Sequence record: OR067834.1
Length of the DNA: 64,000 nt
Strand: one strand, 5' to 3'
Origin: Escherichia phage KKP 3715
The notes under the pieces were generated by a model. That model saw nothing but the letters and a program-made list of their open reading frames with translations. It had not been told where the DNA came from and did no database searches. Below are positions 2,751 through 63,122 of this stretch, in pieces (position 1 is the stretch's first letter; every line of letters begins with the position of its first letter). The position numbers and the translations under genes are program-made.

Positions 2751-3440
2751 ATGAGTGAGCTAACTAAGCAGCAGATCATTAATGCCCTACCTGCTAACTT
2801 CAAGAACAGTGTTAGTCAGGAATTGGTAGACACAATTAACAACATAACCCAAGACCAACTGGTTGCTGAAGCATTCCGTGAAAACTTCATCTCTTACTCT
2901 GGTGTTATGAAGGAAGGTAAGTTTAAGACACAGGACTACATGAATGCAGTTCAGTATGTGACTTACAAACACATGGGCTACTCAAATAAGGAAGCCTACT
3001 TCAAAACATTCCCTAACCGACAAGCAGAACTCATAGCACGAGGAACCAGTGAGAAAGATATTAGTGCTTATGTATCTGCTTATCACAGAGGTAAGTTAGT
3101 TAACCTCATCATGGAACAAAGTTTGGTTCCAGTGTGGATTGTGAACCAAGACAATTATCAGAAGGCAATCAATGTTCAGGTTGAACTAATGACTACAGCA
3201 GCAAGTGAGAAAGTAAGATGTGATGCAGCTAACTCTATCCTTACTCACTTAGCTAAACCTAAAGACCAGGTGACTAATATCAATCTGGACCTGAGAGAAA
3301 ACTCTGGGTTGACTGACCTCAAGGCAACACTTGCTGCATTAGCTGAACAGCAAATTAATGCAATCAATAGTGGTGTACCTACTAAAGAGATTGCTGGTTC
3401 TAAACTAGTACGTGCAGATGAGGACATTACAGATGTCTGA
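2751..3440 (+). CDS. hypothetical protein immediately upstream of terminase large subunit; possible small terminase subunit
   Basis: 229-aa ORF overlapping the terminase start; position only, no diagnostic motif. Confidence 0.5.
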   Translation: MSELTKQQIINALPANFKNSVSQELVDTINNITQDQLVAEAFRENFISYSGVMKEGKFKTQDYMNAVQYVTYKHMGYSNKEAYFKTFPNRQAELIARGTSEKDISAYVSAYHRGKLVNLIMEQSLVPVWIVNQDNYQKAINVQVELMTTAASEKVRCDAANSILTHLAKPKDQVTNINLDLRENSGLTDLKATLAALAEQQINAINSGVPTKEIAGSKLVRADEDITDV

Positions 3441-5016
3441 GTTAATTAAACAGGAACTGGATGAATGGCTGGACCAGGTGGATTACTCTAATTCATCAAA
3501 CTATGTTCCTAGTCAGTTTGCTCTTACCTTTGCCAACTTTATTAAGTTGGTTAATGGCAAAGAAGGTGAATCCAACAAAACACCCCCGGTTCACCTGAAG
3601 ATGTTGGATAAGATGATTACCCCGAACCAGTATGTAGTTAACCTGTGTTTCCGTGGTGCAGGTAAGACTGCTGTGTTCATGGAATACTTTACTTTGTTCC
3701 TGGCAGTGTTTGGTCACTTACCTAGTTTAGGTAAGGTAGAAGGAATGATCTACGTATCTGACTCAATGGATAACGGTGCTAAGTCTGCACGTAAGAACAT
3801 TGAGTTCCGATACAAGAATAGTGAGTTCCTTCGGCAGTGGATACCTGAAGCTACTTTTACAGATAACCTGTTAGAGTTTCGCAATGCAGAAGGGCATCGA
3901 CTAGGTGTTAAGTTGTTTGGTGCTAAGACTGGTCTTCGTGGTACGAAGATATATGGTAAGCGTCCAACACTTTGTGTACTGGATGACTTGATTAGTGATG
4001 GTGATGCTAACTCTAAGACCAGCATGGAAGCTATTAAGGATACTGTCTATAAAGGTGTGAACCATGCCCTTGACCCAACACGTCGTAAAGTAATCTTCAA
4101 CGGTACTCCTTTTAATAAGGAAGACATCATCATTGAAGCAGTAGAGTCCGGTGCATGGGATGTCAACGTATGGCCCGTGTGTGAGAAGTTCCCATGTAGT
4201 AGGGAAGAGTTTCAGGGTGCATGGGATGACCGTTTCTCATATGACTACATCAAAGCCCAATACGACATGGCAGTTAAGACTGGTAAGCTGGCTGGTTTCT
4301 ACCAGGAACTTATGCTTCGTATTAGTTCTGAAGATGAACGTCTTGTTCAGGATAGTGAGATTAAATGGTATAGCAGGCAGCAACTGTTAAGGATGAAGTC
4401 CTGCTACAACTATTACATTACAACCGACTTTGCTACCTCGGAGAAACAGACCAGTGATTACAGTGTCATATCAGTTTGGGCTTATAGTTCTAATGGAGAT
4501 TGGTTCTGGGTTGACGGTGTGGCTAATCGCCAGCTTATGGATAAAAACTTTGACGACTTGTTCCGTCTGGTTCAGGAATACCAACCACAAAACGTTGGTG
4601 TCGAAATTACAGGACAGCAAGGTGGATTCATTTCACTCCTTCAGAAAGAAATGATTAACCGAAATGTCTTCTTTAACTTTGCATCCTCTGAGGGTGGTAA
4701 GCCTGGCATCCGTCCTGTAACCTCTAAGCTGTCACGCTTTAACCTGGTAGTTCCGTGGTTCAAAGCTGGTAAGATGTACTTCCCGGAAGAGTTGAGAGAT
4801 ACAACTATTATGGGTCTGTTCATGGGCCAGATTAAACTAGCTACCATTAATGGGATTAAAGGTAAGGATGACTGTATTGATACTATCTCCATGCTGGGTT
4901 ATCTCAATCCTTGGAAACCACAAGCAGGGATGACTTTGGTGGATAACAAGGGTGACCCGATGTGGGATGAGGAAGAAGAAGATAGTGTTAACCCACTACG
5001 TTCATACATTGTGTGA
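3412..5016 (+). CDS. terL: terminase large subunit
   Basis: 534 aa; Walker A-like CFRGAGKTAV and Walker B-like LCVLDDLISD in the N-terminal ATPase region; size and position match N4-like terminase. Confidence 0.9.
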   Translation: MQMRTLQMSELIKQELDEWLDQVDYSNSSNYVPSQFALTFANFIKLVNGKEGESNKTPPVHLKMLDKMITPNQYVVNLCFRGAGKTAVFMEYFTLFLAVFGHLPSLGKVEGMIYVSDSMDNGAKSARKNIEFRYKNSEFLRQWIPEATFTDNLLEFRNAEGHRLGVKLFGAKTGLRGTKIYGKRPTLCVLDDLISDGDANSKTSMEAIKDTVYKGVNHALDPTRRKVIFNGTPFNKEDIIIEAVESGAWDVNVWPVCEKFPCSREEFQGAWDDRFSYDYIKAQYDMAVKTGKLAGFYQELMLRISSEDERLVQDSEIKWYSRQQLLRMKSCYNYYITTDFATSEKQTSDYSVISVWAYSSNGDWFWVDGVANRQLMDKNFDDLFRLVQEYQPQNVGVEITGQQGGFISLLQKEMINRNVFFNFASSEGGKPGIRPVTSKLSRFNLVVPWFKAGKMYFPEELRDTTIMGLFMGQIKLATINGIKGKDDCIDTISMLGYLNPWKPQAGMTLVDNKGDPMWDEEEEDSVNPLRSYIV

Positions 5017-5022
5017 GGAACC

Positions 5023-5187
5023 ATGCAGAAACTATCGGAAGTATACCGTGGCTTGGCACTAAGTACCTTGAAGGGTACTGGCTCAGTCACGGATGACAGA
5101 CTAGGTATTGAACCAGATAGTAAGCCGGAGATACTAGCTGCTATTAATGAAGGACTGGTACGACTGCATAGTCGTTTCCCCCCTTAA
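5023..5187 (+). CDS. small ORF (54 aa); may be the N-terminal part of the next gene via +1 frameshift, or an independent small gene
   Basis: ATG 5023 with GAGGAA Shine-Dalgarno 4 nt upstream; ends at TAA 5185-5187 just after a C6 run (5178-5183). Not in the ORF track. Confidence 0.3.
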   Translation: MQKLSEVYRGLALSTLKGTGSVTDDRLGIEPDSKPEILAAINEGLVRLHSRFPP

Positions 5188-5734
5188 GACAAATAGCTGC
5201 ATTGTGGAGATGAAGGAAGGACGTACTGATTATCCCCTTCAATCCAAATATGCTTACTCCAGATTTACTAAGCCTACTCTTGAGGTTCAGTATCCATATA
5301 TCATGGATGGCTTCATGAAGCCTTTCCAGGATGACGTTATTAAAATCTTAAATGTGTTTGATAACTCTGGGAATCGACGTAGACTGAACGACGACTCAGA
5401 CCCTCATGCTATTTTCACCCCACGGCCTGATACTATTCAGTGTATGCGACCTCGACACTTCGAGGCACTTAACGTAACGTATCAAGCTAAGCACCCAGTA
5501 CTTACGGGTGATGAAGAACAGGAAGTTGATTTAGCTGATACGTTAATGACGGCACTTCATAACTGGGTGGGTTATCGTTACCACACTGGTTTGAATACTC
5601 CTGAAGCTAACGCTAAAGCAGCAGAGTATCTGCAAACGTATGAAAGCATCTGTGGTGAGGTTGTTGATTACGACCTGGCTAATGGAAGTATTTCAATTAC
5701 CGAAACTAAATTTGAACAACGAGGATGGCGATGA
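5147..5734 (+). CDS. hypothetical virion protein
   Basis: 195-aa ORF; its frame is open from 5138; weak RBS at the 5147 ATG. Confidence 0.6.
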   Translation: MKDWYDCIVVSPLKTNSCIVEMKEGRTDYPLQSKYAYSRFTKPTLEVQYPYIMDGFMKPFQDDVIKILNVFDNSGNRRRLNDDSDPHAIFTPRPDTIQCMRPRHFEALNVTYQAKHPVLTGDEEQEVDLADTLMTALHNWVGYRYHTGLNTPEANAKAAEYLQTYESICGEVVDYDLANGSISITETKFEQRGWR

Positions 5735-8457
5735 ACGCACATACCCCCTTCGATGCAAATCAGGATTGGACCAATCCTTACTGCCAGAACAGTTCCAATG
5801 ACCCAATGGTAGATGCACTACTTGGTAATGCTTACCACGTGGTTCGTACTGTCTACTGTAACCTGGGGAATCTCAAACTTATTTATGATTTCCTGAATAA
5901 ATATGGAATGGTACTAGGTGTTCAATCAGAAGCTGAACTGAAGGCCATGCCTACCAGTGCATCCTATGTACGTCTGTATGGTTTTGATAATACCAATAAA
6001 CGAGTCGTCACAGACTACCTGTATGTAGATGGTGACCGTACAGGTGTAATTCCGGATGACCCGTCTGCTACTGGTTCCTGGATTTTGGTTGCCACTTCTA
6101 ATTCAGGCAGTGGTGAAGATGGTGGTGATGGTAAAGCATCCACCCCATACATCCCATATACGTATAACAATGGTTTCTGCTATTGGGGGGAAACTACTAT
6201 CCCAGTGCCTGTTGGTACGGTTGGTGTACCGATGATTGTAGTTGAGGGCTATACCAACTTAGTTGGTTATGGTTTTACTTATGATGCAACTTCGCTAACT
6301 GTTACTCTGGCTCAACCATTGGAACCTGGTGATGAAGTTCATCTGTTCCTGACCGGTACTCCTGCTGTTCCAGATAATCCTAACGTAACTGACTGGGTTC
6401 AGATTAACTGGTTGTACAATGGTGGGTATGCTGTAGGTGGTGAGCAAGTAATTGTTATTCCTTATACGTTTGAATCTGTACCAGCCATCTACAAGAATGG
6501 CGAACGCTACTATGCAGGTTTGGCTGATAAATCTTATACAGTCGATGCAGCTAACCAGCGTATTCTTTTAACGGAACCTCTGGCTACCAACGACCGTCTG
6601 ATTGTAACTATTGGAGGTGAATCTACTACCCTGATTATGACAGACCGTACTGTTCAGGAAGTAGCACGTTCAGCTAATGTTAAGGATTCAGAGGTTATTC
6701 TGAGCACCAATACTACTCAGTATCTCAATGGTATGAAGGTTGTATTTGATGTTGTAGCGCAGAAGATTTACGGTCTTCCTGCATTACCAACTAACGTCTA
6801 CATCAACACTGTTTCTAATGGGCAATTAACTTATTCCCCGGGTAACATTACAGTTGATTTGCTGCCTGTATCAAATGAATACACTGATGTACTACGCACC
6901 GAACTAGCTGCCGAAACTGGTTCAGAATTGGTTACCTATAAATCTGCATTAAGTGGTGCTATTGCACGTAGCATTCACGAACGTCTTTCTGACTACGTAA
7001 GTGTTAAAGACTTTGGTGCAATTGGTGATGGGATTGCCAATGATGGGCCTGCCATCAATGCTGCATTCTTGGCAGCTAAAAAAGTATTTTTCCCAGCAGG
7101 TACTTACTACCATACCCAAGTAATTAACTTACAAGATGGTCTTACTGTTGACCTTCGTGGGGCAAAGATTAAACCAGCAGATACTATCTTGACTGCTGCT
7201 TGGGTAGGCAACAACCTCAATGATTTACATATTGTCGGCGGATTCTTTGAAGGTGCTGGGTTAGATAATACCTCTGGTAATGGTCAGTTGATGACCCTCA
7301 GTAATTGTGTTCGAGCAAAAGTTGAAGGTACTCATTTCACTAAATCACCGAATGATGGTATTCGTTTAGTTGGCTGTTCCTACTCTAGTGTTCTGGATGT
7401 ACATGCTTACAATAACTTGAGTGTTGGTGTACAAGACAGGGATGGGTTATCTAACTTAATTCATGGTTGCTACTGCAATTACAATGGCGATACAGGTACA
7501 GTTAGTAATACTGGTGGGCGTGGTATTCTTCTTTGGAGAACCAAGAAGTCACTGGTATCTGATTGTTACACCTATAACAATACGGAGTACGGTTTCCGTA
7601 ACTATTCTCAGACTGGTGATGCTAGTGCATCATATCAAAACGTTGTGACTAATCTCCGTTCCGGGGACAACCTTAAAATTGATGTCTATTCTTATAATGA
7701 AGAAGGCAGCATGGCTGAGATTGTATTTAGTAACTGTACTGTACGCAGAACAACGCAGCCTCAGGGTACTTGTGTATCTATTCAGGGTAAAAATACTAAT
7801 TACATTGGGGGCACTATTAAGAAAGAGGGTGACCGTCTTACTGTACCAGTGTTTTCTATTTATCAGACGACTCGTGCTTCTGTACGAAATGTCACTATTG
7901 ATAACGCTGGTCAACTTATTAGTTTGTCTTCTGATGTGGCTACTCAGTTGTCAGGGTTAGTAGCTGAATGCTCTACCATTAGTAATGGGGGCAATGCTAC
8001 TTACACAAACTGTTACTTTACCCATGGTGGTTCTGGTACTACAGATATTGGTATTGATGCAGGTACTGTGTCTACCCCAGTCATTCAAGCTTGCACCTTT
8101 GATGGGTTTTATCGTTGTGTATCGTGGACAGCACAGAAAATGGTATTGGTTAATAACGTTAGTATTAATACTACTGATGTATCCCTTCGTATGTTTGGGG
8201 ATGGTATTGCTAACTATTGGGCATCTGGTAACTGCTGGGATAAAGAAGGTAATCCGGATGTTATTAGTAATTTTACCAAACAAGGTGGACCAACTGCTAA
8301 ACCAGTTATTTATGTTAACAACGCAGCACCTACTACTCTTACGTGGCCTGTAGGTGCTATTGCAATTAACAAGACACCTGTGGTTGGGCAACCTAAAGAT
8401 TGGCGTTGTACTGTAGCGGGAACCCCCGGTACATGGGTTTCTGGTGGTAATCTGTAA
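5725..8457 (+). CDS. tailspike protein with pectate-lyase-like beta-helix (putative depolymerase)
   Basis: 910 aa; VKDFGAIGDGIANDGPAINAAF motif typical of phage beta-helix depolymerases; N-terminal ~310 aa plausibly the particle-binding part. Confidence 0.8.
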   Translation: MAMNAHTPFDANQDWTNPYCQNSSNDPMVDALLGNAYHVVRTVYCNLGNLKLIYDFLNKYGMVLGVQSEAELKAMPTSASYVRLYGFDNTNKRVVTDYLYVDGDRTGVIPDDPSATGSWILVATSNSGSGEDGGDGKASTPYIPYTYNNGFCYWGETTIPVPVGTVGVPMIVVEGYTNLVGYGFTYDATSLTVTLAQPLEPGDEVHLFLTGTPAVPDNPNVTDWVQINWLYNGGYAVGGEQVIVIPYTFESVPAIYKNGERYYAGLADKSYTVDAANQRILLTEPLATNDRLIVTIGGESTTLIMTDRTVQEVARSANVKDSEVILSTNTTQYLNGMKVVFDVVAQKIYGLPALPTNVYINTVSNGQLTYSPGNITVDLLPVSNEYTDVLRTELAAETGSELVTYKSALSGAIARSIHERLSDYVSVKDFGAIGDGIANDGPAINAAFLAAKKVFFPAGTYYHTQVINLQDGLTVDLRGAKIKPADTILTAAWVGNNLNDLHIVGGFFEGAGLDNTSGNGQLMTLSNCVRAKVEGTHFTKSPNDGIRLVGCSYSSVLDVHAYNNLSVGVQDRDGLSNLIHGCYCNYNGDTGTVSNTGGRGILLWRTKKSLVSDCYTYNNTEYGFRNYSQTGDASASYQNVVTNLRSGDNLKIDVYSYNEEGSMAEIVFSNCTVRRTTQPQGTCVSIQGKNTNYIGGTIKKEGDRLTVPVFSIYQTTRASVRNVTIDNAGQLISLSSDVATQLSGLVAECSTISNGGNATYTNCYFTHGGSGTTDIGIDAGTVSTPVIQACTFDGFYRCVSWTAQKMVLVNNVSINTTDVSLRMFGDGIANYWASGNCWDKEGNPDVISNFTKQGGPTAKPVIYVNNAAPTTLTWPVGAIAINKTPVVGQPKDWRCTVAGTPGTWVSGGNL

Positions 8458-16173: not shown

Positions 16174-17376
16174 ATGTTAAACTATAACGCCCCAATTGAC
16201 GGCCAGAAATCTAGCATTGATGGTGCTGGTTCCGACCAGATGAATACCTATTACTGGCTGAAGAAAGCTATTATTCAGTCCCGTAAAGACCAGTACTTCA
16301 TGCCACTGGCTAACACCATTAACATGCCGAAGAACTACGGTAAAACTGTTAAGGTGTATGAGTACGTTCCACTGCTTGATGATAAGAATATTAACGATCA
16401 GGGTATTGATGCTAATGGTGCTACCATCGTTAATGGTAACCTGTATGGTTCTTCCCGAGACGTTGGTAACATCACTTCTAAACTGCCTCTGCTGACAGAG
16501 AACGGTGGTCGTGTTAACCGTGTAGGCTTTACTCGTCTGTCTCGTGAAGGTTCCATCCATAAGTTCGGTTTCTTCTACGAATTTACTCAAGAGTCTCTGG
16601 ACTTTGATTCTGATGACCAACTGAAAGAACACCTGTCTCGTGAACTGATGAACGGTGCTGTACAGTTGACTGAAGCTGTTCTCCAGAAAGACCTGTTGGC
16701 TGCTGCCGGTACTGTACTGTATGCAGGTGCTGCTACTTCTGATGCTACCATCACTGGTGAAGGTTCTACCCCGTCCGTAGTTTCTTATAAGAACCTGATG
16801 CGTCTTGACCAGATTCTTACTGAGAACCGTACTCCGACCCAGACTACTATCATCACTGGTTCTAAACTCACTGACACCAAAGTACTTGGTGGTACTCGTG
16901 TAATGTACGTTGGTTCTGAACTGGTTCCTGAGCTGAAAGCGATGAAAGACCTGTTCGGTAACAAAGCATTCATCGAGGTTCAGCACTATGCTGATGCTGG
17001 TACTCTGATGAATGGTGAGATTGGTTGTATCGACAAGTTCCGTATTATCCAGGTTCCTGAGATGCTGCATTGGGCAGGTGCTGGTGCTCAGGTTACTACT
17101 AACCCAGGTTATCGTTCTTCTATGGTTAGTGGTCAGGAACACTACGACGTATTCCCGATGCTGGTAGTTGGTGATGACTCCTTCTCTACCATTGGCTTCC
17201 AGACTGATGGTAAGTCTGTTAAGTTCTCCATCATGACTAAGATGCCTGGTCGAGAAACTGCTGACCGTAATGACCCGTATGGTGAGACTGGTTTCAGTTC
17301 CATCAAGTGGTACTACGGTATCCTGGTTAAACGTCCAGAACGTCTGGCTCTGATTAAGACTGTTGCTCCTCTGTAA
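16174..17376 (+). CDS. major capsid protein
   Basis: 400 aa, matching N4-like major capsid size; followed by a strong hairpin; codon-biased highly expressed gene. Confidence 0.85.
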
Positions 17377-17393
17377 TAGTCCTAAATAAAACA

Positions 17394-17413
17394 AGGGGGA
17401 CTTATGTCCCCCT
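17394..17413. terminator. 8-bp GC-rich stem-loop (AGGGGGAC-TTAT-GTCCCCCT) downstream of the capsid gene
   Basis: U-rich tract is better on the minus strand; may act as terminator or mRNA 3-prime stabiliser. Confidence 0.5.
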
Positions 17414-17443
17414 CTTAATAAAACTAGTTGAACCACAGGAAAT

Positions 17444-18085
17444 ATGAACATGAGCATTAACGATAAACCGACCACTGACGTAGAACTGGACGTACAGGGC
17501 AACGAAGATACCGTTAACGATATTGCAATGCCTAGCGAACTTGAAGTTCTTAAGCAACGTGCAACGTTGATGAATATTAAGTTCTCTAACAACATCTCCG
17601 TTGAGAAGCTCCGTGAGAAGATTGAAGCTGCACAAGCAAAAGATGAACCAGAAGTAAAAGAATCAGCAGTTAATCCTTTGGGTGAAAAACAGGAAGCTGG
17701 TGTTAAGAAAATGACCCTGGGTCAGAAGATTCGTGCAGAACAGACTCGACTGATTCGTGTACGTATCCAGAACCTAGACCCTAAGAAGAAAGACCTGCCG
17801 GGTGAGATTATCACCGTAGCTAACGAATATATGGGTACTGTACGTAAGTTTGTTCCATTCGGTGAAGTCACCGACAATGGTTATCATATTCCGTACTGTA
17901 TCTATGAGTTCCTTAAAGAGCGTAAGTTCATCAACATTACGACTCGTAAAGGTAAGAATGGCTTACCGGATATCCGTGCAACAGAGGCACGTGAGTTCTC
18001 CATTGAAGTATTGCCTCCGCTGACTGAAGCAGAATTGACTCAACTGGCTCAAGCACAGATTGCTGCTGGTAGCCTGAACGATTAA
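17444..18085 (+). CDS. virion structural protein
   Basis: 213-aa ORF in the conserved structural block. Confidence 0.5.
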   Translation: MNMSINDKPTTDVELDVQGNEDTVNDIAMPSELEVLKQRATLMNIKFSNNISVEKLREKIEAAQAKDEPEVKESAVNPLGEKQEAGVKKMTLGQKIRAEQTRLIRVRIQNLDPKKKDLPGEIITVANEYMGTVRKFVPFGEVTDNGYHIPYCIYEFLKERKFINITTRKGKNGLPDIRATEAREFSIEVLPPLTEAELTQLAQAQIAAGSLND

Positions 18086-24152: not shown

Positions 24153-27100
24153 TTGAACAGGAAACATGCTATGTCAACATTTGACCGTCTGGCAGGTTTC
24201 GCAGACAGCATCACTAATGCTAAGCAAGTCGATGTCTCTACTGCAACCTCTCAGAAGCAAGCTGCACAAGGGCAAAGCCCTTTCCAATTAACCCCAGAGA
24301 ATGCTTACAATCTCCAGACTGGACGAGTAGGTAATCTTGGAATCGGTGCATTCGAACCAGATTCACTTCAGGCAGATTTCACTCAAGCCTCCCCATTAGA
24401 AATCATTAATAAATACGGTAATGAGCAAGGTTTACAGATTCTTAATAGCCGAGCTAATGCTGCTGATGTTGTACGTCAGGACTTATCTAAACAGCGTACT
24501 AACGCAGAAGCATTTGGCGATACTCTTTCTGGTGTTGGTCTTGGTGTTGCTAATACCCTTGGGGGCATTGCTGCTCTTGGCACAGGTCTGGTCAATGATA
24601 ATGCCGGGGCAACCATTGCTTCCGGGATGGATTGGTTGAATGAAGGCGTACACAATCTCCAGTCTGATGCACTGAATGCTACCCGTAAAGTTGTTCAGAA
24701 TCAGAACCAGATTTCTGCTCAAAAGAACCAGAAACTCTATGAAGAAGACATCAAAAATGGGGAGAGCGATTTGGTTGCCTCCTTGTCTCGCATTGGTCGT
24801 GACGCTTTCGATTCTGTTGCTAATACACTTGATAATGGTATGGCTGCTTCCGACGGACTGAGTGAAGGGGTTGGTTCCCTCTTTACTGGTGGTCCACTTA
24901 TTCGTGGTGTATCTGCACTTGGTAAAGTAATGGTAGGTGGTGATAAAGCTGTTAAGGGTATTACCTTAGCTGCTGGGTTAGGTTCACGCCCTGCACAGGT
25001 TGCATTGTCTGCTGGTCGTGTTGCTGCACCTGCTATTGCAATCGGTGGTATGGAAGCTGGTGGTGCATACCAACAGACTGCTTCTGAAATCATGAAGATG
25101 TCCCATCAAGAATTGGCAAGCAAGTCTCCTGTTTACCAACAACATATTGCTGATGGATTATCCCCTGATGAAGCACGTCGTCAGACTGCATCTGAAACAG
25201 GTATCATTGCTGCTGGCTTAACTGCTCCAGTTGCTGCTGCTACCGGCCCATTGGTATCTCGCTTTGAACTTAATCCACTTAAGGTAGGTTCACTTGCAGG
25301 TGCTGGTTCTAATATGCTGCGTGAGACTGTAGAGGAAGGTATTCAGTCAGGCTTTGGTCAATATGCCCAGAACCGTGCAATCAAGGAAAATGTTGATGCA
25401 TCCCGTGACGTTCTCAAAGGAGTCGGTGAGCAAGCAGGTCTGGGTGCACTTTATGGCTTCGGTAGTGCTGGTGTTGCTCAAGCTCCTGGTGCAACTGTTA
25501 AAGCTGCCGGTGCTGCTGCTGGACCTGCTCTTCGTACTACTCTGGCTGGTGCTTCTCTGGTTGGTAAAACATTAGCAAAAGCTGCATCTCCTCTTACTAA
25601 TATCCTGGTTCAACGTGGTGAAGAAGTTGCTAAGCGTAATGAACAAGCATCCCCTGTAGCTGATGCTACGGTTAATGCTGCTGCACAGGAAGCTGCTGCT
25701 CAGGCAGAGCAAGCACAGGCAACTGTACAGGAAGCAGTAGATGCAATGGATATCTCTCCAGAAGAGAAAGCTGCTGCTACCCAATATGCTGCTGACTTAA
25801 CTCAGGCAATGAAGTTTGATCCAGTAGAATTGGAACAAGCTAATCCAACAATCCGTGAAGCTGTTTCTGGTTCCACTAACCGTGTAGAAGCTATTCAGAA
25901 GATGGCTGACCTGGTTAATACTGCCGAAGACCCTAACGTTCAAATGGAAGCAGCAATCCAGATGTATGACAATATCATGTCCATGGATAGCTTCATTAAC
26001 CGTGACCCGGGTGCTCTGGCTAATCTGGAACAGGGTTCCCCTGCTGCTGCAATTGTAGACCAGTTCTCTGGCCTGATGGCTAACGTACAGAATACCCCTA
26101 AAGTACTTCGTGCATTCCGTGCTATTCATTCCATGATTCAGGAACAGGCTGAAGCAGGTAAGCTGAAAGCTACTGAAGAAGCTAACCAAGCCCAGGCAAA
26201 TAACATTGCTATGGCTGCTGATGTATCTCCAGAAGTGCTGGATGCAGATTCAGTGAACATGGTTCTGAAACATGCAAGTGAAGGTAAGATTACATTAGGG
26301 AATCGTCAACGTGCTGCCCTGCAATCTGCTGCTGCCTTGTTACAGGGTGCACGTGAGTTCGACGCTAAAGCAGAAGAACTAGGCTTACGTCCTCAAGACA
26401 TTGTTAGTAAACAGATTAAAACCGATGAGTCTCGTTCTAATGAAGGACAGTACTCTGCGTTGCAACATGCGAAACGCATTCGTTCTGCGTATAACTCTGG
26501 TAACTTCGATTTGGCCTCCGCTTATCTGAGCGACTTTATGAAGTTCGCCCAGCACATGCAGAATAAGGTCGGAGCGTTGAATGAGCATTTGATTTCGGGG
26601 AATGCGGATAAGAATAAGTCTGTTCATTATCAGGCTCTCTCGCCTTCCCGTGAATGGGTACGTAGTCGTACTGGCCTCGGTGTCAATCCTTACGATACCA
26701 AGTCTGTTAAGTTTGCCCAGCAAGTAGGACTGGAGGCCAAAACCGTAGCTGATATTGCTAATGCACTTGCTACGGCTTACCCGGAGCTTAATGTTTCTCA
26801 TGTGAAAGTTACCTCGTTGGATTCACGTCTGAACAAGCCAGCTGCCCAGGTAGTTAAAGAGTTCCGTCAAGGTGGTCTTGATGCCACTCAGTCTCAACAG
26901 ACTAATGAACCAGTGAATCAGGTTGATGAATCTCCTGCACCAGTGCAAGAGGACACTACTACTGTACAGCCTAAAGCTAAACCAGTGGTAGAAAATAAGA
27001 CTGCTCCTACTAAGGAGACTAGTCCAAAAACAGAAGAAGTCTCTACTACTAAGTCTGAAACAGTAGAAGCTACCCCCACTAATGAGGATACCATCCAGGA

Positions 27101-30100
27101 AGTAGCCAAAACCAAAACAGAAATGGAAACAGTGTTCCCTGTCTATAACAATGAAAAGACACCGAACCAGTTCCTGAAAGCATTTACCTTACCAGAGGAA
27201 CCTAAGTCTCGTACCGTTGGTTCTGAATCTCCTTTGGCTGATATTAAGCAAGCACTGTCTTCTGTTGCTCGCTTTGAGGCATTTACTCAAAAAGAAAATA
27301 ACGTTCTCACAGGTGATGTGATTAAGCGTTATCAGGACTTAATGGACTTTGGGGAAACTCTGAAGACTACTTTGTCTGAACGATTGGCTAAGTTCCTTGC
27401 TAATAAGAACGTTGGTAAACGTTTTGCAGAAGGTACTGAAGCTAACCGTTGGGTAGGTGGCAAACTACTTAATATCGTTGAACGAGATGGTGACACCTTT
27501 AAGTTTAATGACCAGTTGTTAGAGACTGCTGTACTTGCTGGTCTGCAATGGCGACTGACTGCTACACAGAATGCTGCCATTAAAGACATGAAAGATGTGG
27601 CTGCTATTACTGGTGTAGAAGCATCTTTGTTACCAGAAGGTATTCTGGCTGAGTTTGAGAATGCCCAGACTCTGGTAGAAGCTACTAACTCACTGGCTCA
27701 GAAGATTGAATCCTACTGGGGTTTAAACCGTAATCCTAATGCACCACTTGGGTATACAAAAGGCATCCCAATGGCAATGGCTACAGAGATTCTGTCTTCC
27801 CTCATTGAGATGGGTGAAGTTAAAGAATCTATGCTGGATGTGTCCGAGATTGACCCAGACTCCAATAAGACTGTCGGTCTGTATACTATTGAGAAGCTGG
27901 ATGACAACGATGCCATTAACAAATTCCCTACTGCTATTGAGGAAGCTGTCCTCTTAGAACCAGAAGAGAAAATGTATTTTGATGATGATATTCCTTCTGT
28001 GGCTCAAACTCAGTTGCGTAACCCTGCTGTTAAGAATACCCCAGAACAGAAAGCTGCACTTAAAGCTGAACAGGCTACTGAGTTCCGTGTACATATGCCG
28101 ATGGTTAACTTCTATGAAGCATTAGGCCGTGACAACATTCTGGAACTGATGGGTGCTGGTACTCTTAATCCTGATTTGCTGAATAAAAACACTGCCAAAT
28201 CTTTGGAAGGTAAAAACCTGTCCGTATCCATGGCATATGATTCTCTGTTCGGTGTAATTAATCAGATACGAGAACAAGAGAATGGTCTGGATACTCCTAT
28301 TCACTACGGTTACAACATGACTCGTGTAGGTCGTATGCAGATGCTTGGTAAGAACAACCCACAATCCAGTAAACTGGTTCGTGAAGCAATTCTGCCGACC
28401 TTCTCTACTATCGACTTGAGTAATGAAAACAGCCAAGCATTCTCTGACTTCCAGCTAGGACTGGCTCAGGCATTAGGCATCAAGGTACATAAAATGTCAC
28501 GTGAAGCTATGTCTGAAAATCTGACCAAAGCTCTGGAAGGCAATCTGAAGCCTGCTGTTGATATGATGGTTGAGTTTGATAAGGCTGGTTACTTACCTAC
28601 TGATGCAGTAGATATTCTGAAGACTTCTCTGGGTGATAACAAATCCTTCGTGGCTCTCATGGCTCTGATGGAATATGCCCGTTACCTGAACAGTGATGAC
28701 CGTGCTAATTTTACTACTCCCTTGTACGTTGAAGCTGATGGTGTAACCAACGGCCCAATCAACGCAATGGTATTAATGACTGGTGGTAAGTTCACGCCCG
28801 ACTGGATTAAGAACACTGCCAAAGGTGGTTTGTTCTTTGGTCGTGCTGGTAAAACGATGAACGAACACTGTTCTATCGACGATAATGTTGACTTGTATGA
28901 AGCATCTACCAATGGTCTGCAACAAGCACTGAATGAGTTACGTACTACTTACCGTAACAACGTTCCGGTTATGAGCCAGATGAATCATCTCCAGAAGTTA
29001 ATGGACTTGTTCATTAAAGACTTTAATCTGAACGAAGACGGTACTCTGGACCTGAAACGTGGTATCGCTAAAAACCCACTGACCATTACCATCTATGGTT
29101 CTGGTGCACGTGGTATTGCTGGCAAGATGGTTAGTGCAATTACTGACACCATCTACGAACGCTTCAGTGACGTTCTGCAAGCACGGGCTGCTGACCCTAG
29201 CATTTCCCCAGCTATGGCAATGTTTGGTAAGGAGGCTGCGTCTGAGGCTGATGCTCAGGCTATGCTGGATACTTTCCTTACTTCTATGGAAGCACTGACT
29301 GGCAATGTTCCAGTTATGCGTAAAGGTGAATTGTCTATTCAGCAAGTAGATGGTGCTCTGACTGGTAAGTTAGACCCTCAGAAGTTTACCGTATCCGGTA
29401 ATGCTCTGAAGAACTTACAAGAGAACATGCTCCACCTGTTCGTTGAACCAATGCGTACCGGTATCCGGAATACTGTTGGTGAAGGTCTGATGCACTCTAC
29501 TGAGAATTTGCAGAAGGCTACCCAGATTCAATCTCTGGTATTGCAGGATATGTTCCAGCAAGCAGTACAGGCTAAGCTGGCAGAAAAAGAAAAAGACCCA
29601 ACCTGGAAGAAGGGTGATTTCTTAACGCAGAAAGAACTGAATGAAATCCAGGAATCATTATCTCCACTGGCTCCAATGATTGAGACTGGCTCACAGACTT
29701 TCTACATTGCTGGCAGTGAGAATACTGATGTTGCTAACCAAGTACTGGCTACTAACTTAGATGATCGTATGCGTGTGCCAATGAGCATCTATGCTCCTTC
29801 ACAGGCAGGTGTTGCAGGTATTCCATTTATGACCATCGGTACTGGTGATGGCATGATGATGCAGACCCTTTCTACTATGAAGGGTGCTCCGAAGAATACC
29901 CTGAAAATCTTTGATGGTATGAACATTGGTATCAGTGACATTACTGATGCAAGTCGTAAAGCTAACGAGGCTGTATACACTTCCTGGCAGGGGAACCCTA
30001 TCAAGAATGTTTATGACTCCTACGCTAAGTTCATGAAGAATGTAGACTTCAGCAAACTGTCTGATGAAACCAAACAGGCTATCGCTAAATCTGCTCTGGA

Positions 30101-33100
30101 ATATGACCTGCGTGAGGGTGCTACCGATGACCTGTTACGTGCAGGTGCTGAACAGATTGAACGTAACCTACGTAACATTGCTCTGGGTGTAGATATTCGT
30201 CACAAAGTGATGAACCAGGTACAGACCACTGTTGACCAGATGGCTGCTGTAGGTGCTCCTTATGTGAACAACGGTAAAATCTCTCTGGAAGGTCTGACTG
30301 TAGACCAGCAAGTAGCTAAGCTAAACGAACTATTTGATGCTGAATTAAATAAGCGTCGTGATGCAGTACGTGCTGCTAAAGCAGAACCTGTTAAAGAAGT
30401 GCCAGCTATGGAACAAGTTGGTCGTGTACTGAAGTCTGGTGTACGTCTGTTGTCTAATACTGCTATCACTAAGCTGGCTAAAGAGATGACTTCTGAACAG
30501 CAAGCAGTATTGAAAGAAGTACAGAAATCCCTTGCTGCTAAAGACTACAAGGTTGTTTACGGTACTCCTGCTCAACTGGATGCTTATGCTATTGAGAAGA
30601 ACATTACTCGCCCAGCACCGGAAGATATTGAAGCTGCCGAAGCTGGTAATGCATATGGCTGGACTAACTTTGATGATAAAACCATCTACTTAGTTACCCC
30701 TTCCTTAGAGACTCTGGTTCATGAATTAGTACATGCTTCTACTTTTGAATCTGTACTGGCTCACTATGAGGGTACTCCTAACGAAGCAGTCCAGAACATC
30801 GAAGATCTTATGAACCAGTTCCGTACTCTGGATGTTAAGAACGAATCCCCGGCAGTACGTGAAGCATATGCTGATGCACTCAATACCATTAACGGTCACT
30901 TGTCTAATGGCTTTATTGAACCTGCAATGGCTAAAGCTGCTGCACTGAATGAGTACATGGCATGGGGCTTAACCAATCGTGAACTGATTGGTAAGCAGAA
31001 GAAGACCACTGCACTGAAAACTATGGTTCAGTCTGTGTATGAAGCAATCAAGCGTCTGGTATTTGGTCGCAAGAAAGCACCTGCTAATGCAGATGATATG
31101 TTCTCCGGATTACTGTTTAACTCTTCAGTAGTTATGCGTGGGCAGGCTCCTACTGCTGCTGTATCCAAAGACACTACCTTGTTCCATAACAAAGCATATG
31201 GAGATAATACCCGTCTTGAAGAATTGGGGCAGACCTTTGATAAGCTGATTACTAACTACATTGGTTCTGAACCAGTGCAGCAAGTAATTCGTAAAGGTAA
31301 GTTCTCTGATGCAGTAGTGAATGCAACTAAAGTAACTCGTGATGTTCAGGCTTATGGCTTTACCATGAATATGCAGGAACAGCGATTGTTCACTAATATC
31401 GTTGCTGCTTTGGCTACTGAAGCTGCTATTAGTCCGGCTGCTCTTTCTCGTGCACAGGAATACTATGCACACGTTACTAAGAACCTGACCGTTGAATCAT
31501 TCATGGCTGACCCGGATAGTACTAACCCTGCTGACCGTTACTATGCTCAACAGAAGTTCGATACCATCATGGGTGCTAACAATATTGAGTTTGATGCACA
31601 AGGTCGTTCTTCCTTACTGCCTACCTTTGTTGGTCTGGCAATGGTAAGTGAAGAGGTGCGTAACGTACTGGCTAACATTCCTGTTATGAAAGCAGATAAG
31701 AAATCTGGTAATACCGTTGATGCAATGCTGACTAACATTGGTACTGCTGCAATGTCTAGCCTGAACGCTCGTGTAGCAGGTGATACCAAAGCTACTAACG
31801 TACAGGAAGGTATGGATGCACTGGCTCAGACAATCATGCAGACAAGTCTTAATGCACAGTCATTCTATGATTCCGTTGCTACTCCTAGTGGTAATGCTAT
31901 TGACCGTGCTAACCAGTATCTGGTGGATTCTATTGATGCACTGTCTACTCGTGCTTTAGAAAGTGCTCGTGAAGTTGCAGCTAATACCAAGAACCCATTG
32001 GTTAAGGGTGCTGCTCATGCTGCACAATTGGTGGCTGCTATTGCTACTGAGAAGAACGGTGCAATCGTGGCAGAAGGTGTTATGGCTGCAATGAACCAGG
32101 GCAAGGTATGGCAACCTTTCCACGACTTGGTTAATGACTTAACTGGTCGTACTAAGAGCAATGCTTCTGTATACGATTTGATTAAAGCAGTTCGTGCACA
32201 GGTACAGGCTGACCGTCAGCAGTTCCGTGAACATCTGCCTACCACTATCGCATCTAAGTTCAGCCGTAAGCTGACTAACGATGAGTGGAAAGCAATGCAC
32301 ACCGGTATGGGTAAAACTGACTTAGCTGTTCTGCGTGACACTATGTCTCTGGCTGAAATCCGTGACCTGCTGTCTGACCAGAAGATTGTTGACCGTGAAG
32401 TGAATAAGCTGGAAGCAGATTTGCAGAAACAAGCTGGTCGTAACTGGCCTCTGATTAACCGTAAATCTAAGCAACTGGCTCAGTACATGATTAACGGTAC
32501 GGTCGGTAATAACCTGCTGCGTAATGCTACTGCAATCTCCCGTATGCTGGGTGAACGTCAGGCTGCTCGCTCTACTGTAGATGTAGCTCAACTGGATAAA
32601 CTGATTACCCTGTATGCACTGGAAGCAATGAACAAGTCCGACCGTGAGACGTTATCTTCACTGGCTCAGACAGAAGTTGAGGGAATGGACTTTGCTACTT
32701 CTTACCTGGTTGGACAACGTAAAGATGAAATGGCTAAAGCCAAGTCTGATATGCGTGCAACCCTGAACCAGTACAAAGGGCATATTCCTAGTGAGACTAA
32801 ACAGGGTGTTAATCTGATTGTTGCTGAAGATAGCCAGTTTGCTGATTTGATTGAGAAGTCCTATGTACGTCTGGGTACTTATCAAGGTAGCTCTGCTAAC
32901 CGTGGTCCGGCACGTAGCTATTACTTTGCACCAGTACAGGCACAGGCTCCTTTCTCACAGGGTATCCTACAGAACGTTCGTAATACTGCTGGTGGTGTAG
33001 ACCTCGGCACAGGCTTTACGATGGGTTCCATGGTAGCTGGTCGTATTACTGACAAGCCTTCCGTAGACCGTATCACTAAAGCACTGGCTCGTGGCGAACG

Positions 33101-34523
33101 TGGTAATGAACCACTGCTGCCTGTATATGACGATAAAGGTAATGTAGTTGCCTATGAGCAATCCATTGACCCTAATATGCTGAAGCACATTGAGGGTGAG
33201 AACCATCTTGCCCGTGCAATCGGCGTATGGCGTGGTCGTCAGGTGGAAGAAGCTAAGGCTCAGCGTTTCAACGATATGCTGATTGAGAACCTGCATAGCA
33301 TGTATGAGAACGACATTAAGATGTCTGCCTCTAATAAGTCCCAGTACGTTAACCTTCTTGGTTCTAAATTGGACCCAGTAACTGCTGATGCTCTTAAGCT
33401 AATGAATAGTGAAACCCGTCAGAAAGCAGAGAGTTTGTTCGGTGAGGGTGAACTGTGGGTACGTCGTGACATGCTTAATGATGCACTTGGTTATCGTGCA
33501 GCTTCTGTAGGTGATGCCTGGTCTGGTAATTCTCGTTGGTCTCCGGAAACATTGGATACCTTTAAGAAAGCTATGCTGGGTGTATTTGGTAACCGTGCCT
33601 ATAAGTACACAATGGGTGGTGAGAACCTGGTTCAAAACTTAGTTAAAGAAGCTAAGACTCTGATTGTAGTTAAGTCAGTAGTCGTACCTGCTGTTAACTT
33701 CTTAGCTAACCTTTACCAGATGGTTGCCCGTGGTGTACCGGTTAAGAACATTGCTAAGAGCATTCCACAGAAGACTGCTGAGATTAACCAGTACCTTAAA
33801 TCACGTCTGCGTCAGGTAGATGCAGAAGCAGAATTACGTGCAGCTACTAACCCGAACCAGATTCGTAAACTTAAGGCTGAGATTCAGTCCATTACTGATA
33901 GCCATAAGCGTATGAGTATCTGGCCTCTGTTGGAAGCCGGTGAGTTCTCTTCAATTGCAGACGCTGGTATTGGTCGTGATGACATCCTGATTACTGAAGG
34001 CAAACTCCACGAATACATGGATAAGCTGGCAGATAAGTTACCTAAGTCTGTGCGTACTGCCGGTCGTTATGCACTTATTACTAAGGATACTGCTCTGTTC
34101 CAGGGTATCCAGAAGACGGTTGAGTACTCTGACTTTATCGCTAAAGCAATCATCTATGATGAACTGACTCAGCGTAAAGGTAAGACTCGTGAAGAAGCAC
34201 TTGGGCGTGTAACGGAAGAGTTCGTTAACTATGACCGTTTACCTGGTCGCTTCCGTGGGTACATGGAAAGTGTTGGTTTAATGTGGTTCTACAACTTTAA
34301 GATTCGTTCAGCTAAGGTTGCTGTGTCCATGATTCGTAATAACCCTGTACATGCAACAATGGCGATGCTGGCTCCAACTCCTACCATGTTTGGTAACGTT
34401 GGCTTACCTATTCAGGACAACATCTTTAGTATTGCTGCTAAGGGTAGTCTGGATTACTCATGGGGCTTTGGTCAGGGTCTTCGTGCTCACAACCTGAACC
34501 CTTGGATGAACCTGGTAAACTAA
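24153..34523 (+). CDS. virion-encapsidated RNA polymerase (giant, N4 vRNAP-like)
   Basis: 3456-aa ORF, the hallmark of N4-like phages. Track start is TTG at 24153; ATG at 24171 with AGGAAA RBS is the more likely start. Confidence 0.9.
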   Translation: MNRKHAMSTFDRLAGFADSITNAKQVDVSTATSQKQAAQGQSPFQLTPENAYNLQTGRVGNLGIGAFEPDSLQADFTQASPLEIINKYGNEQGLQILNSRANAADVVRQDLSKQRTNAEAFGDTLSGVGLGVANTLGGIAALGTGLVNDNAGATIASGMDWLNEGVHNLQSDALNATRKVVQNQNQISAQKNQKLYEEDIKNGESDLVASLSRIGRDAFDSVANTLDNGMAASDGLSEGVGSLFTGGPLIRGVSALGKVMVGGDKAVKGITLAAGLGSRPAQVALSAGRVAAPAIAIGGMEAGGAYQQTASEIMKMSHQELASKSPVYQQHIADGLSPDEARRQTASETGIIAAGLTAPVAAATGPLVSRFELNPLKVGSLAGAGSNMLRETVEEGIQSGFGQYAQNRAIKENVDASRDVLKGVGEQAGLGALYGFGSAGVAQAPGATVKAAGAAAGPALRTTLAGASLVGKTLAKAASPLTNILVQRGEEVAKRNEQASPVADATVNAAAQEAAAQAEQAQATVQEAVDAMDISPEEKAAATQYAADLTQAMKFDPVELEQANPTIREAVSGSTNRVEAIQKMADLVNTAEDPNVQMEAAIQMYDNIMSMDSFINRDPGALANLEQGSPAAAIVDQFSGLMANVQNTPKVLRAFRAIHSMIQEQAEAGKLKATEEANQAQANNIAMAADVSPEVLDADSVNMVLKHASEGKITLGNRQRAALQSAAALLQGAREFDAKAEELGLRPQDIVSKQIKTDESRSNEGQYSALQHAKRIRSAYNSGNFDLASAYLSDFMKFAQHMQNKVGALNEHLISGNADKNKSVHYQALSPSREWVRSRTGLGVNPYDTKSVKFAQQVGLEAKTVADIANALATAYPELNVSHVKVTSLDSRLNKPAAQVVKEFRQGGLDATQSQQTNEPVNQVDESPAPVQEDTTTVQPKAKPVVENKTAPTKETSPKTEEVSTTKSETVEATPTNEDTIQEVAKTKTEMETVFPVYNNEKTPNQFLKAFTLPEEPKSRTVGSESPLADIKQALSSVARFEAFTQKENNVLTGDVIKRYQDLMDFGETLKTTLSERLAKFLANKNVGKRFAEGTEANRWVGGKLLNIVERDGDTFKFNDQLLETAVLAGLQWRLTATQNAAIKDMKDVAAITGVEASLLPEGILAEFENAQTLVEATNSLAQKIESYWGLNRNPNAPLGYTKGIPMAMATEILSSLIEMGEVKESMLDVSEIDPDSNKTVGLYTIEKLDDNDAINKFPTAIEEAVLLEPEEKMYFDDDIPSVAQTQLRNPAVKNTPEQKAALKAEQATEFRVHMPMVNFYEALGRDNILELMGAGTLNPDLLNKNTAKSLEGKNLSVSMAYDSLFGVINQIREQENGLDTPIHYGYNMTRVGRMQMLGKNNPQSSKLVREAILPTFSTIDLSNENSQAFSDFQLGLAQALGIKVHKMSREAMSENLTKALEGNLKPAVDMMVEFDKAGYLPTDAVDILKTSLGDNKSFVALMALMEYARYLNSDDRANFTTPLYVEADGVTNGPINAMVLMTGGKFTPDWIKNTAKGGLFFGRAGKTMNEHCSIDDNVDLYEASTNGLQQALNELRTTYRNNVPVMSQMNHLQKLMDLFIKDFNLNEDGTLDLKRGIAKNPLTITIYGSGARGIAGKMVSAITDTIYERFSDVLQARAADPSISPAMAMFGKEAASEADAQAMLDTFLTSMEALTGNVPVMRKGELSIQQVDGALTGKLDPQKFTVSGNALKNLQENMLHLFVEPMRTGIRNTVGEGLMHSTENLQKATQIQSLVLQDMFQQAVQAKLAEKEKDPTWKKGDFLTQKELNEIQESLSPLAPMIETGSQTFYIAGSENTDVANQVLATNLDDRMRVPMSIYAPSQAGVAGIPFMTIGTGDGMMMQTLSTMKGAPKNTLKIFDGMNIGISDITDASRKANEAVYTSWQGNPIKNVYDSYAKFMKNVDFSKLSDETKQAIAKSALEYDLREGATDDLLRAGAEQIERNLRNIALGVDIRHKVMNQVQTTVDQMAAVGAPYVNNGKISLEGLTVDQQVAKLNELFDAELNKRRDAVRAAKAEPVKEVPAMEQVGRVLKSGVRLLSNTAITKLAKEMTSEQQAVLKEVQKSLAAKDYKVVYGTPAQLDAYAIEKNITRPAPEDIEAAEAGNAYGWTNFDDKTIYLVTPSLETLVHELVHASTFESVLAHYEGTPNEAVQNIEDLMNQFRTLDVKNESPAVREAYADALNTINGHLSNGFIEPAMAKAAALNEYMAWGLTNRELIGKQKKTTALKTMVQSVYEAIKRLVFGRKKAPANADDMFSGLLFNSSVVMRGQAPTAAVSKDTTLFHNKAYGDNTRLEELGQTFDKLITNYIGSEPVQQVIRKGKFSDAVVNATKVTRDVQAYGFTMNMQEQRLFTNIVAALATEAAISPAALSRAQEYYAHVTKNLTVESFMADPDSTNPADRYYAQQKFDTIMGANNIEFDAQGRSSLLPTFVGLAMVSEEVRNVLANIPVMKADKKSGNTVDAMLTNIGTAAMSSLNARVAGDTKATNVQEGMDALAQTIMQTSLNAQSFYDSVATPSGNAIDRANQYLVDSIDALSTRALESAREVAANTKNPLVKGAAHAAQLVAAIATEKNGAIVAEGVMAAMNQGKVWQPFHDLVNDLTGRTKSNASVYDLIKAVRAQVQADRQQFREHLPTTIASKFSRKLTNDEWKAMHTGMGKTDLAVLRDTMSLAEIRDLLSDQKIVDREVNKLEADLQKQAGRNWPLINRKSKQLAQYMINGTVGNNLLRNATAISRMLGERQAARSTVDVAQLDKLITLYALEAMNKSDRETLSSLAQTEVEGMDFATSYLVGQRKDEMAKAKSDMRATLNQYKGHIPSETKQGVNLIVAEDSQFADLIEKSYVRLGTYQGSSANRGPARSYYFAPVQAQAPFSQGILQNVRNTAGGVDLGTGFTMGSMVAGRITDKPSVDRITKALARGERGNEPLLPVYDDKGNVVAYEQSIDPNMLKHIEGENHLARAIGVWRGRQVEEAKAQRFNDMLIENLHSMYENDIKMSASNKSQYVNLLGSKLDPVTADALKLMNSETRQKAESLFGEGELWVRRDMLNDALGYRAASVGDAWSGNSRWSPETLDTFKKAMLGVFGNRAYKYTMGGENLVQNLVKEAKTLIVVKSVVVPAVNFLANLYQMVARGVPVKNIAKSIPQKTAEINQYLKSRLRQVDAEAELRAATNPNQIRKLKAEIQSITDSHKRMSIWPLLEAGEFSSIADAGIGRDDILITEGKLHEYMDKLADKLPKSVRTAGRYALITKDTALFQGIQKTVEYSDFIAKAIIYDELTQRKGKTREEALGRVTEEFVNYDRLPGRFRGYMESVGLMWFYNFKIRSAKVAVSMIRNNPVHATMAMLAPTPTMFGNVGLPIQDNIFSIAAKGSLDYSWGFGQGLRAHNLNPWMNLVN

Positions 34524-37126: not shown

Positions 37127-37802
37127 TGGTCCCCCGTTTCTAATACATGGACGGGAGAACTCCACGATCGTTTGTTAATCAGGACGACTCACTCCTGACT
37201 GAGGTTACGCTGTTAGGCGACCATCAGATACGCTTCTTCGTTTGCATTTATGTTATTGGTTCGTTTCTAAAAAACCGCATAATCGCTACGAAAACTATCA
37301 ATGAGTACACTCTGTGGATTCATTTTACAGGGACTTCATTTCATTCCCTGACCTCAATCAAATGTACTCATTGATAGCCCATAATAGGAGGGAGGGGACG
37401 AATCCTCCCTTTATACCCTATGTTGCATGTAAGATCTAACAGTTCGGTGTTGTAGACGGATGGGCTTATGCTTACCGGCATTAAACTCCCGCCCCCTTAT
37501 TGGGCTGGGTTAATTAATATACTCAACATTGAGCAGTTAGTTTGATAAGGGATCTGAAGCCTTATCCCAAAGATACTAACCTTTGGGATATAGCCTAAGA
37601 TTCAGAAATGGCCCCTATAGGAGAGGCCATTGATTAACCCGAATGTTGCTTTACATTTTCTGAGGTAACCAATTCTTAAAATAGTCTGTCTGACGGATGG
37701 GGGGCCACCCCTAGCGTCAGTGCCATACGGCAAAGATTAAGTTAAGAAAGGTTATGATAGGAGTTCCTATCTCAAAGGATTCTGACAGAACCCTTCACGA
37801 TA

Positions 37803-40053: not shown

Positions 40054-40806
40054 TTAAGCGTAGTATTCAGCCAGATGGTCTAAGAGTTTCTGGGCATCAT
40101 TGTCGATATAAGTCTGTGACTTATCAAACATACCCATCGGTGAGCGAAGACGTTTACCAACAGACTTCTTGGTTGGACGAGTCTGGAATACGTGCTTATA
40201 GCCTAAGTCACGTTCTTCTTCCGTAATATCAAGCATCTTGTTGCCATACTTCTCCAGTTCCTTAATGTCTACACGTTCTGCGTAAACCACTGTAGAGAAG
40301 TAAGCCTCAAGGCCATTGTTCTTCAGGGAACCCTTAACTGGGATGAATGTTTTCATCACACCAGCAGCTTCGTCGAGTTCATCTTTGGCATGAGCAGTAA
40401 TGATTACTGGTTTACCAAACTTAACGACTTTCTGTTGCAACAGTATTTTAAAGAACTGTGCAAAGTCTCCCCAGGCTTTCTGGGTATTAGCAGAAGGCAA
40501 TACATACTGGGATTCCAGCATGTCCATCATGAAGGTAGCAGAGTCGATAATGATGCCATCAACATCGTCTGCCATTTCACCACCAGGAGATGCAACATCA
40601 AATGCTTCCCAAATCTGATATGGGTCTTCAATGTTGTAGGTGTTGAACTTATTACGGAAAGGTAGACGCTTGCCTGCTTCTGTATTCAGATACAGCCATC
40701 GTTCCTGGTTCCGGATATTGCGCAGTGATGCTGATTTACCACTCGCTGAAAATCCTGCAATCAGGATTAGCTGAGTGTTCATATCGTTGGAGATTTCTTC
40801 GGACAT
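40054..40806 (-). CDS. P-loop ATPase (RecA-core, Sak4-like) of the replication module
   Basis: 250 aa; Walker A LILIAGFSASGKSAS near the N-terminus. Confidence 0.6.
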   Translation of the reverse strand: MSEEISNDMNTQLILIAGFSASGKSASLRNIRNQERWLYLNTEAGKRLPFRNKFNTYNIEDPYQIWEAFDVASPGGEMADDVDGIIIDSATFMMDMLESQYVLPSANTQKAWGDFAQFFKILLQQKVVKFGKPVIITAHAKDELDEAAGVMKTFIPVKGSLKNNGLEAYFSTVVYAERVDIKELEKYGNKMLDITEEERDLGYKHVFQTRPTKKSVGKRLRSPMGMFDKSQTYIDNDAQKLLDHLAEYYA

Positions 40807-40863
40807 TATTTTTTCCTCGTTTAGTTTAGGAGTCCTTCAAACCAAAGAAAGACTCCTGTTTTC

Positions 40864-62903: not shown

Positions 62904-63122
62904 CTAGTTGTTGATGTGGTAAATCCAGTAAGCTATCCAACCGGCTAATACAAAACATCCGGCAGAGTACGCTCCATAGTAGCAATAAGCAAACTTGGAT
63001 TTGTGGGCGTTAACTATAGTGAGTATCACAATAGCAGATAAAACTATCAGTACGGTTTTAGTAATAACATCATAGATGTCTGGCATGTTGACTACCTCCA
63101 AGCAAAAAATAAAAAGCCCCAT
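62904..63122 (-). CDS. small membrane protein
   Basis: Track start lies inside the upstream terminator hairpin; ATG at 63086 with GGAGG RBS is more likely, giving a 60-aa product. Confidence 0.4.
   Translation of the reverse strand: MGLFIFCLEVVNMPDIYDVITKTVLIVLSAIVILTIVNAHKSKFAYCYYGAYSAGCFVLAGWIAYWIYHINN

Follow-up and report, generated by a model that had tools for sequence, protein, structure and literature searches.

Within the 64,000-nucleotide stretch of Escherichia phage KKP 3715 that was analyzed here at its full length (record OR067834.1; the window), an open reading frame (ORF) of 54 amino acids at positions 5023 to 5187 is followed in the +1 frame by a 195-aa ORF ending at 5734. 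Does the phage carry two genes at this locus, one gene that is read through a +1 frameshift, or one gene into which a surplus base has found its way? The initial annotation had described a TAA directly behind a run of six C residues (5178 to 5183), with the +1 frame continuing to 5734, and this layout was confirmed in the sequence. The end of the 54-aa ORF reads ...CGT TTC CCC CCT TAA. In frame 2, a TAG at 5135 to 5137 is followed by an open frame from 5138, as had been stated, with the first ATG at 5147 and a TGA at 5732 to 5734 (195 aa). The features of the locus are given below, with gene names that anticipate the identification of the product as gp67.

3412 to 5016, plus strand: terminase large subunit gene (gp68 orthologue), directly upstream; PHROG 38, E 4e-101
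5015 to 5020, plus strand: Shine-Dalgarno (SD)-like GAGGAA for the true gp67 start, read from the sequence
5023 to 5181, plus strand: gp67 codons 1 to 53, frame 1; PHROG 2125 positions 2 to 52
5147 to 5182, plus strand: spurious 5' extension of the 195-aa ORF, gp67 codons about 42 to 53 read out of frame
5178 to 5183, plus strand: C6 homopolymer, the site of the frame break, with one C more than in any relative
5183 to 5734, plus strand: gp67 codons 54 to 236 and stop, frame 2; PHROG 2125 positions 52 to 233, E 4.5e-71
5185 to 5187, plus strand: premature TAA in frame 1, made by the extra C; relatives read ..CTT AAG.. (Leu-Lys)
5731 to 8457, plus strand: gp66 tailspike gene (910-aa ORF); PHROG 12242, tail protein

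The position of the terminase gene matches that of G7C gp68 and Bas96_0002. Its 534-aa ORF ends with the TGA at 5014 to 5016, which the GAGGAA at 5015 to 5020 overlaps, and the gp67 coding sequences of G7C and Bas96 begin at the ATG homologous to 5023, 7 nt past the terminase stop. The sole SD-like element ahead of ATG 5147 is a GGAG at 5127 to 5130, 16 nt upstream. The better ribosome binding site (RBS) that had been claimed for 5023 was thus upheld, whereas the 4-nt spacing given for it holds when counted from GAGG and becomes 2 nt when counted from the whole GAGGAA. ATG 5147 therefore lacks a usable RBS and is no real start. The first 11 residues of the 195-aa ORF (MKDWYDCIVVS) represent an out-of-frame reading of DNA that encodes NEGLVRLHSRF, and the PHROG 2125 match within this ORF begins only at residue 12; these residues are therefore out-of-frame noise. 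At the other end of the locus, the start of gp66 overlaps the stop of gp67 (ATGA), and the gp66 of relatives opens with MNAHTPFD at the homologous ATGA. Translation of gp66 is probably coupled to that of gp67 through this overlap.

The two ORFs were found to tile a single profile, PHROG 2125 ("virion structural protein", 234 positions), the 54-aa ORF covering positions 2 to 52 and the 195-aa ORF positions 52 to 233. They are therefore consecutive pieces of one protein and not a chance adjacency, and by homology they are assigned as the N- and C-terminal parts of gp67, the N4-like head-to-tail adaptor. For the structure comparisons, a repaired protein of 236 aa was obtained by removing one C from the window sequence. 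This protein matched 9d80_B (residues 1 to 235 against 1 to 233, E 3.8e-108) and N4 gp67 (9lc0/9yf4/9yf5; 4 to 236 against 4 to 236, E 6.6e-72), with further structure matches to 9d83_B ("head to tail adaptor") and 9bgm_b. The junction, ...LHSRF-P-LKTN..., fell within the best-conserved stretch of the adaptor alignment, where the joined product reads ...LHSRFPLKTNSCIVE... In N4, the tail is attached to the portal by gp67, the head-to-tail adaptor, which was modelled at full length in the virion in a 2026 cryo-EM study (PMC13434306). The annotation of G7C gp67 points to similarity with the N4 30 kDa virion protein and records a "confirmed presence in G7C virion."

The window belongs to Gamaleyavirus (N4-like, G7C group), with approximately 95% DNA identity to Bas96, G7C, PhAPEC7 and E20; the best DNA identity in the phage collection searched was about 95 to 96%. 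As in other Schitoviridae, the adaptor gene lies downstream of the terminase large subunit gene and upstream of the gp66 tailspike gene and shares the ATGA overlap, and after removal of one C its product has the same length (236 aa) as the Gamaleyavirus gp67 orthologues and 97 to 99.6% identity to them. Sequence and synteny together thus place the gene in the N4 gp67 adaptor family, from which it differs solely by the extra C at 5178 to 5183 that splits the ORF. A single uninterrupted ORF of about 234 to 236 codons is absent from the KKP 3715 record as written, and the phage itself may differ from its record in this respect. The initial annotation had proposed that the two ORFs belong together, which one shared profile and the continuous ORF of the orthologues bear out; its estimate of about 237 aa for the fusion is corrected to 236 aa.

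These data also bear on the reading of the locus as two genuine genes, one for a 54-aa protein and one for a 195-aa virion protein initiating at Met 5147. Such a reading is what an ORF caller obtains from the sequence as written, and the 54-aa ORF has been annotated accordingly: WLW40924.1 is the exact 54-aa sequence, a "hypothetical protein" of Escherichia phage KKP 3715 (contig of 71,272 bp). This product formed a singleton cluster among 15 billion proteins, and the exact 195-aa sequence had no match in the protein collection searched. However, the orthologues are single ORFs, the 53 N-terminal residues belong to a conserved adaptor that is modelled at full length in the N4 virion, the start at 5147 has no RBS, and the first 11 residues of the 195-aa ORF show no homology. 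The probability that two genes are present is accordingly next to nothing.

Comparison with relatives located the surplus base. The segment from 5023 to 5734 comprises 712 nt in the window, whereas G7C gp67 and Bas96_0003 are each a single 711-nt coding sequence in the same place. The alignment put the surplus base inside the C run, where the window has CCCCCC, Shigella phage pSb-1 has CCCCC, G7C has CCCTC and Bas96 has TCCTC. Over a longer stretch, the window reads TTTCCCCCCTTAAG, while pSb-1 and one metagenomic contig read TTTCCCCCTTA, with C5 and in frame; the relatives without C5 read TTTCCCTCTTAAG (G7C) and TTTTCCTCTTAAG (Bas96). Removal of one base from the homopolymer restores colinearity with all orthologues. 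The C6 allele, searched as a 24-mer and as a 19-mer, gave no exact matches in IMG/VR or in JGI metagenomes, and the in-frame C5 allele was present in two IMG/VR contigs by exact-pattern scan. When the repaired protein was used in tblastn, it was matched over at least 80% in one place in 394 of 400 phage records across the Schitoviridae. The initial annotation had suggested that orthologues be compared for one continuous ORF; this is what the relatives carry, and not two separate conserved genes. The join is thereby confirmed, and the comparison contains nothing in favor of recoding.

Among the 60 best records, the protein was found in two pieces only in pSb-1 (two copies of the record), with a different break site. 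In that phage (NC_023589.1, locus at about 896 to 897), the annotation divides the gp67 orthologue into gp25 and gp24, each a "virion structural protein," and the break consists of a 1-nt deletion (CACCCAG to CACCT-G) approximately 330 nt beyond the site in KKP 3715. Since pSb-1 is split by a deletion of its own, independent single-base breaks of gp67 recur in deposited genomes.

The coding signal was intact in both halves of the gene. Against Bas96, the N-terminal part was 55/55 identical by tblastn, and all 10 differing codons were synonymous; the C-terminal part showed 98.9% identity over 184 aa, with 11 of 13 differing codons synonymous. Extended to six relatives, the comparison gave 7 to 12 differing codons with 0 to 2 amino acid changes in the N-terminal part and 13 to 26 differing codons with 1 or 2 amino acid changes in the C-terminal part. 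That nearly all differences are synonymous on both sides indicates purifying selection in one frame up to the present, and the break is therefore either extremely recent or not real.

The same comparisons weigh on the possibility of an evolved, programmed +1 frameshift of the prfB or Listeria phage PSA type, which would set the ratio of the 54-aa product and the 236-aa fusion. The locus shares with such sites a proline codon near a stop as a potential shift site (CCC CCU UAA), and phage PSA shifts to the +1 frame in structural genes at a proline codon that precedes a stop codon or a pseudoknot (PMC5009743). A P-site codon able to re-pair in the +1 frame is present, namely, CCC at 5179 to 5181 followed by C at 5182. 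However, the A-site codon for a slip on CCC_C would be CCU, an ordinary proline codon, and the UAA follows one codon later; the stop therefore adjoins CCU, from which +1 re-pairing would be on CUU, and not the CCC_C slip site. Known sites of this type are conserved, give rise to two functional products and have stimulators (a pseudoknot, an SD-like element or a stop in poor context); none of this applies here. All examined relatives read the gene in one frame, some of them without a C run (TCCTC, CCCTC), and the 54-aa product matched only the adaptor N terminus and has no identity of its own. No SD-like motif was present in 5155 to 5178, the fold of 5150 to 5270 downstream had a z score of -1.47, with 17 of 200 shuffles folding as well, and the region had no match in Rfam. 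A programmed +1 frameshift was therefore rejected on the grounds of the one-frame relatives and the lack of a stimulatory structure, an SD-like element and an Rfam family, and it is considered exceedingly improbable. Transcriptional slippage was likewise set aside on account of run length: productive slippage by RNA polymerase needs runs longer than C6, usually of A or T and 8 to 9 or more in length.

The quality of the assembly was assessed by comparing the whole window with the complete Bas96 and G7C genomes, both through all alignment indels and through tblastn of stop-to-stop ORFs in both directions. Compared with these two genomes, gp67 was the sole conserved gene with a frame break in 64 kb. 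The remaining indels with lengths that are not a multiple of three were either intergenic or, in divergent mosaic segments, paired so as to compensate each other. The idea that the genome is riddled with frameshifts was thus rejected, as the indel scan and tblastn showed gp67 alone to be broken. The C6 run is one of eight G/C runs of at least 6 in the 64 kb. Three-way polarization of isolated 1-nt indels showed the window to differ from both relatives at 5178, 40813 and 63111, and a fourth such indel, at 37130, could be aligned to Bas96 only. All four were insertions in the window, three of them in homopolymers and that at 37130 beside a C5 run. By comparison, G7C had two unique isolated 1-nt indels and Bas96 at most one.

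At 40811 to 40816, the window has T6 where Bas96 and G7C have T5; the T6 version (23/24-mer) was found in no IMG/VR contigs, and the T5 version was found in eight. This run forms the intergenic spacer between RBS and ATG of a gp44-like gene on the minus strand (ORF 40054 to 40806) and may be another homopolymer overcall. The intergenic run at 63111 to 63115 is A5 in the window and A4 in Bas96 and G7C, and it adjoins a terminator-like GCCCCATACC...GGTATGAGGC hairpin. The A5 version is also present in IMGVR_UViG_3300045988_012650 and, being shared with an independent contig, is a natural variant. At 37130, an extra T precedes the C5 run (GGTCCCCC versus GGCCCCC in Bas96), in a region of small ORFs and tRNAs between the virion RNA polymerase and the replication genes where G7C is unaligned.

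In its behavior, the frame break matches a homopolymer indel artefact and not a recoding site, and it contains no new biology. The affected gene was identified, the excess of one base falls within a homopolymer and occurs in this record only, and the coding signal is intact on both sides. We infer that the sixth C is very likely a homopolymer-length miscall in the consensus assembly, that is, an artefact and not a mutation in the phage DNA. The real run would then consist of five C residues and read TTC CCC CTT AAG (Phe-Pro-Leu-Lys), and the deposited sixth C would shift the 183 downstream codons to the +1 frame and create the TAA. The real phage would accordingly have an uninterrupted 236-aa gp67 translated from ATG 5023 without recoding. 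Of the two causes offered by the initial annotation, the homopolymer error thus fits the single surplus base and a C6 found in no relative, while the programmed +1 frameshift falls with its lack of conservation and of a stimulator.

Leftover errors in homopolymer length are a typical defect of nanopore-only assemblies. The break in gp67 resembles such long-read errors in adding a single base to one of the longest G/C runs, in its record-only allele and in the conservation of both halves, and the contemporaneous phage genomes of the same laboratory were nanopore-only and unpolished. Specifically, KKP 3708, KKP 3709 and other sister phages of the same collection and period were sequenced by nanopore only, using Rapid Barcoding, GridION, Guppy 6.3.8 and Flye 2.8.1 with no short-read polishing (PMC11172527, PMC10299301). 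The sequencing method of KKP 3715 is undocumented in the searchable literature, and the platform argument therefore rests on the sister phages; a further paper on the same collection names only KKP 3710, 3712 and 3716 and refers to the isolation work as unpublished (PMC12114494). Several observations count against a miscall. Unlike typical genomes with nanopore errors, KKP 3715 has only one broken gene, the assembly being otherwise clean over 64 kb. Some homopolymer differences in this genome are natural, as seen for the A5 at 63111. Furthermore, the extra C happens to make a good +1 slip site (CCC_C) that restores the ancestral protein.

The last of these observations leads to the readings in which the sixth C is real. 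It could be a recent mutation in the phage stock, with full-length adaptor either made at a low level by non-programmed +1 slippage or supplied by wild-type genomes that complement it in a mixture. An intact coding signal on both sides is what would be expected of a very recent mutation. The peptidyl-tRNA-Pro could slip from 5179-5181 to 5180-5182 (CCC to CCC) and then read CTT AAG, giving a +1 product identical to the orthologues, with the ancestral ...RFPLKT... A Pro-Pro-stop ending, such as that of the 54-aa product, should slow termination, an effect reported by Hayes, Bose and Sauer in 2002. In E. coli, the sequence CC[C/U]-[C/U] is particularly slippery, and at the position most prone to shifting, +1 shifts reach about 1% at most (PMC4519876); the G run of herpesvirus thymidine kinase is an example of "compensatory" frameshifting on a homopolymer indel (PMC5009743). 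In KKP 3715 as deposited, a CCC_C stands in the right register, and the +1 product would be the ancestral protein. However, there is no sign that the site is used, and at most about 1% would be expected from such slippage for an adaptor that is needed stoichiometrically: in the N4 tail, gp67 is ordered over its full length and sits on the portal, and essentially all Schitoviridae have the gene unbroken. With a yield of 1% or less and the ATGA coupling to gp66 lost, the phage should be crippled, yet it was propagated and sequenced. Moreover, no stimulator was seen, as an SD-like element is lacking upstream and the fold downstream is not significant (z = -1.47), and the C6 allele went unmatched in IMG/VR and in JGI metagenomes. 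A real, recent stock mutation is therefore regarded as unlikely. The stricter version, in which the sixth C is real and the essential adaptor is made only by obligatory +1 slippage of tRNA-Pro on CCC_C, is very unlikely; possibly, such slippage would be aided by slow termination at Pro-Pro-UAA. Were the extra C real, the locus would be a modestly interesting natural instance in which +1 slippage on CCC_C compensates for a mutation in an essential phage gene, a "corrective" frameshifting by which a lytic double-stranded DNA phage rescues a structural gene from a fresh indel.

With a homopolymer miscall as the preferred explanation, the public record of KKP 3715 presents a 54-aa "hypothetical protein" and a truncated downstream ORF where one 236-aa adaptor belongs. 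The record probably needs correction, so that the 54-aa ORF and the fragment that follows it form one adaptor gene. More generally, signals that resemble frameshifts can be cheaply resolved through comparison with relatives.

Three further observations were made in the window. In gp66 (plus strand), two compensating indels lie 13 nt apart, an added T at 6174 (GGTTC to GGTTTC) and the loss of one nucleotide at 6187 (TGGTGGGG to TGGGGGG), and together they turn the gp66 motif NGSA(T/N/A/I)GGET into NGFCYWGET. Six relatives were compared; four keep the motif, and two are shorter there and end in GGE. The pair, which has the look of a local consensus problem, may represent either two further errors in the consensus or a true frameshift patch that is compensated.

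The virion RNA polymerase ORF at 24153 to 34523 (plus strand) has approximately 3,450 codons, compared with 3,599 in Bas96 and 3,748 in G7C. No frame break was detected in this ORF against Bas96 and G7C, and the difference in length is thus attributed to in-frame indels or mosaic segments (e.g., around 30115 to 30140). Finally, a 472-aa ORF at 16177 to 17595 on the minus strand runs antisense to the major capsid protein gene (16174 to 17376) and is probably a chance ORF.
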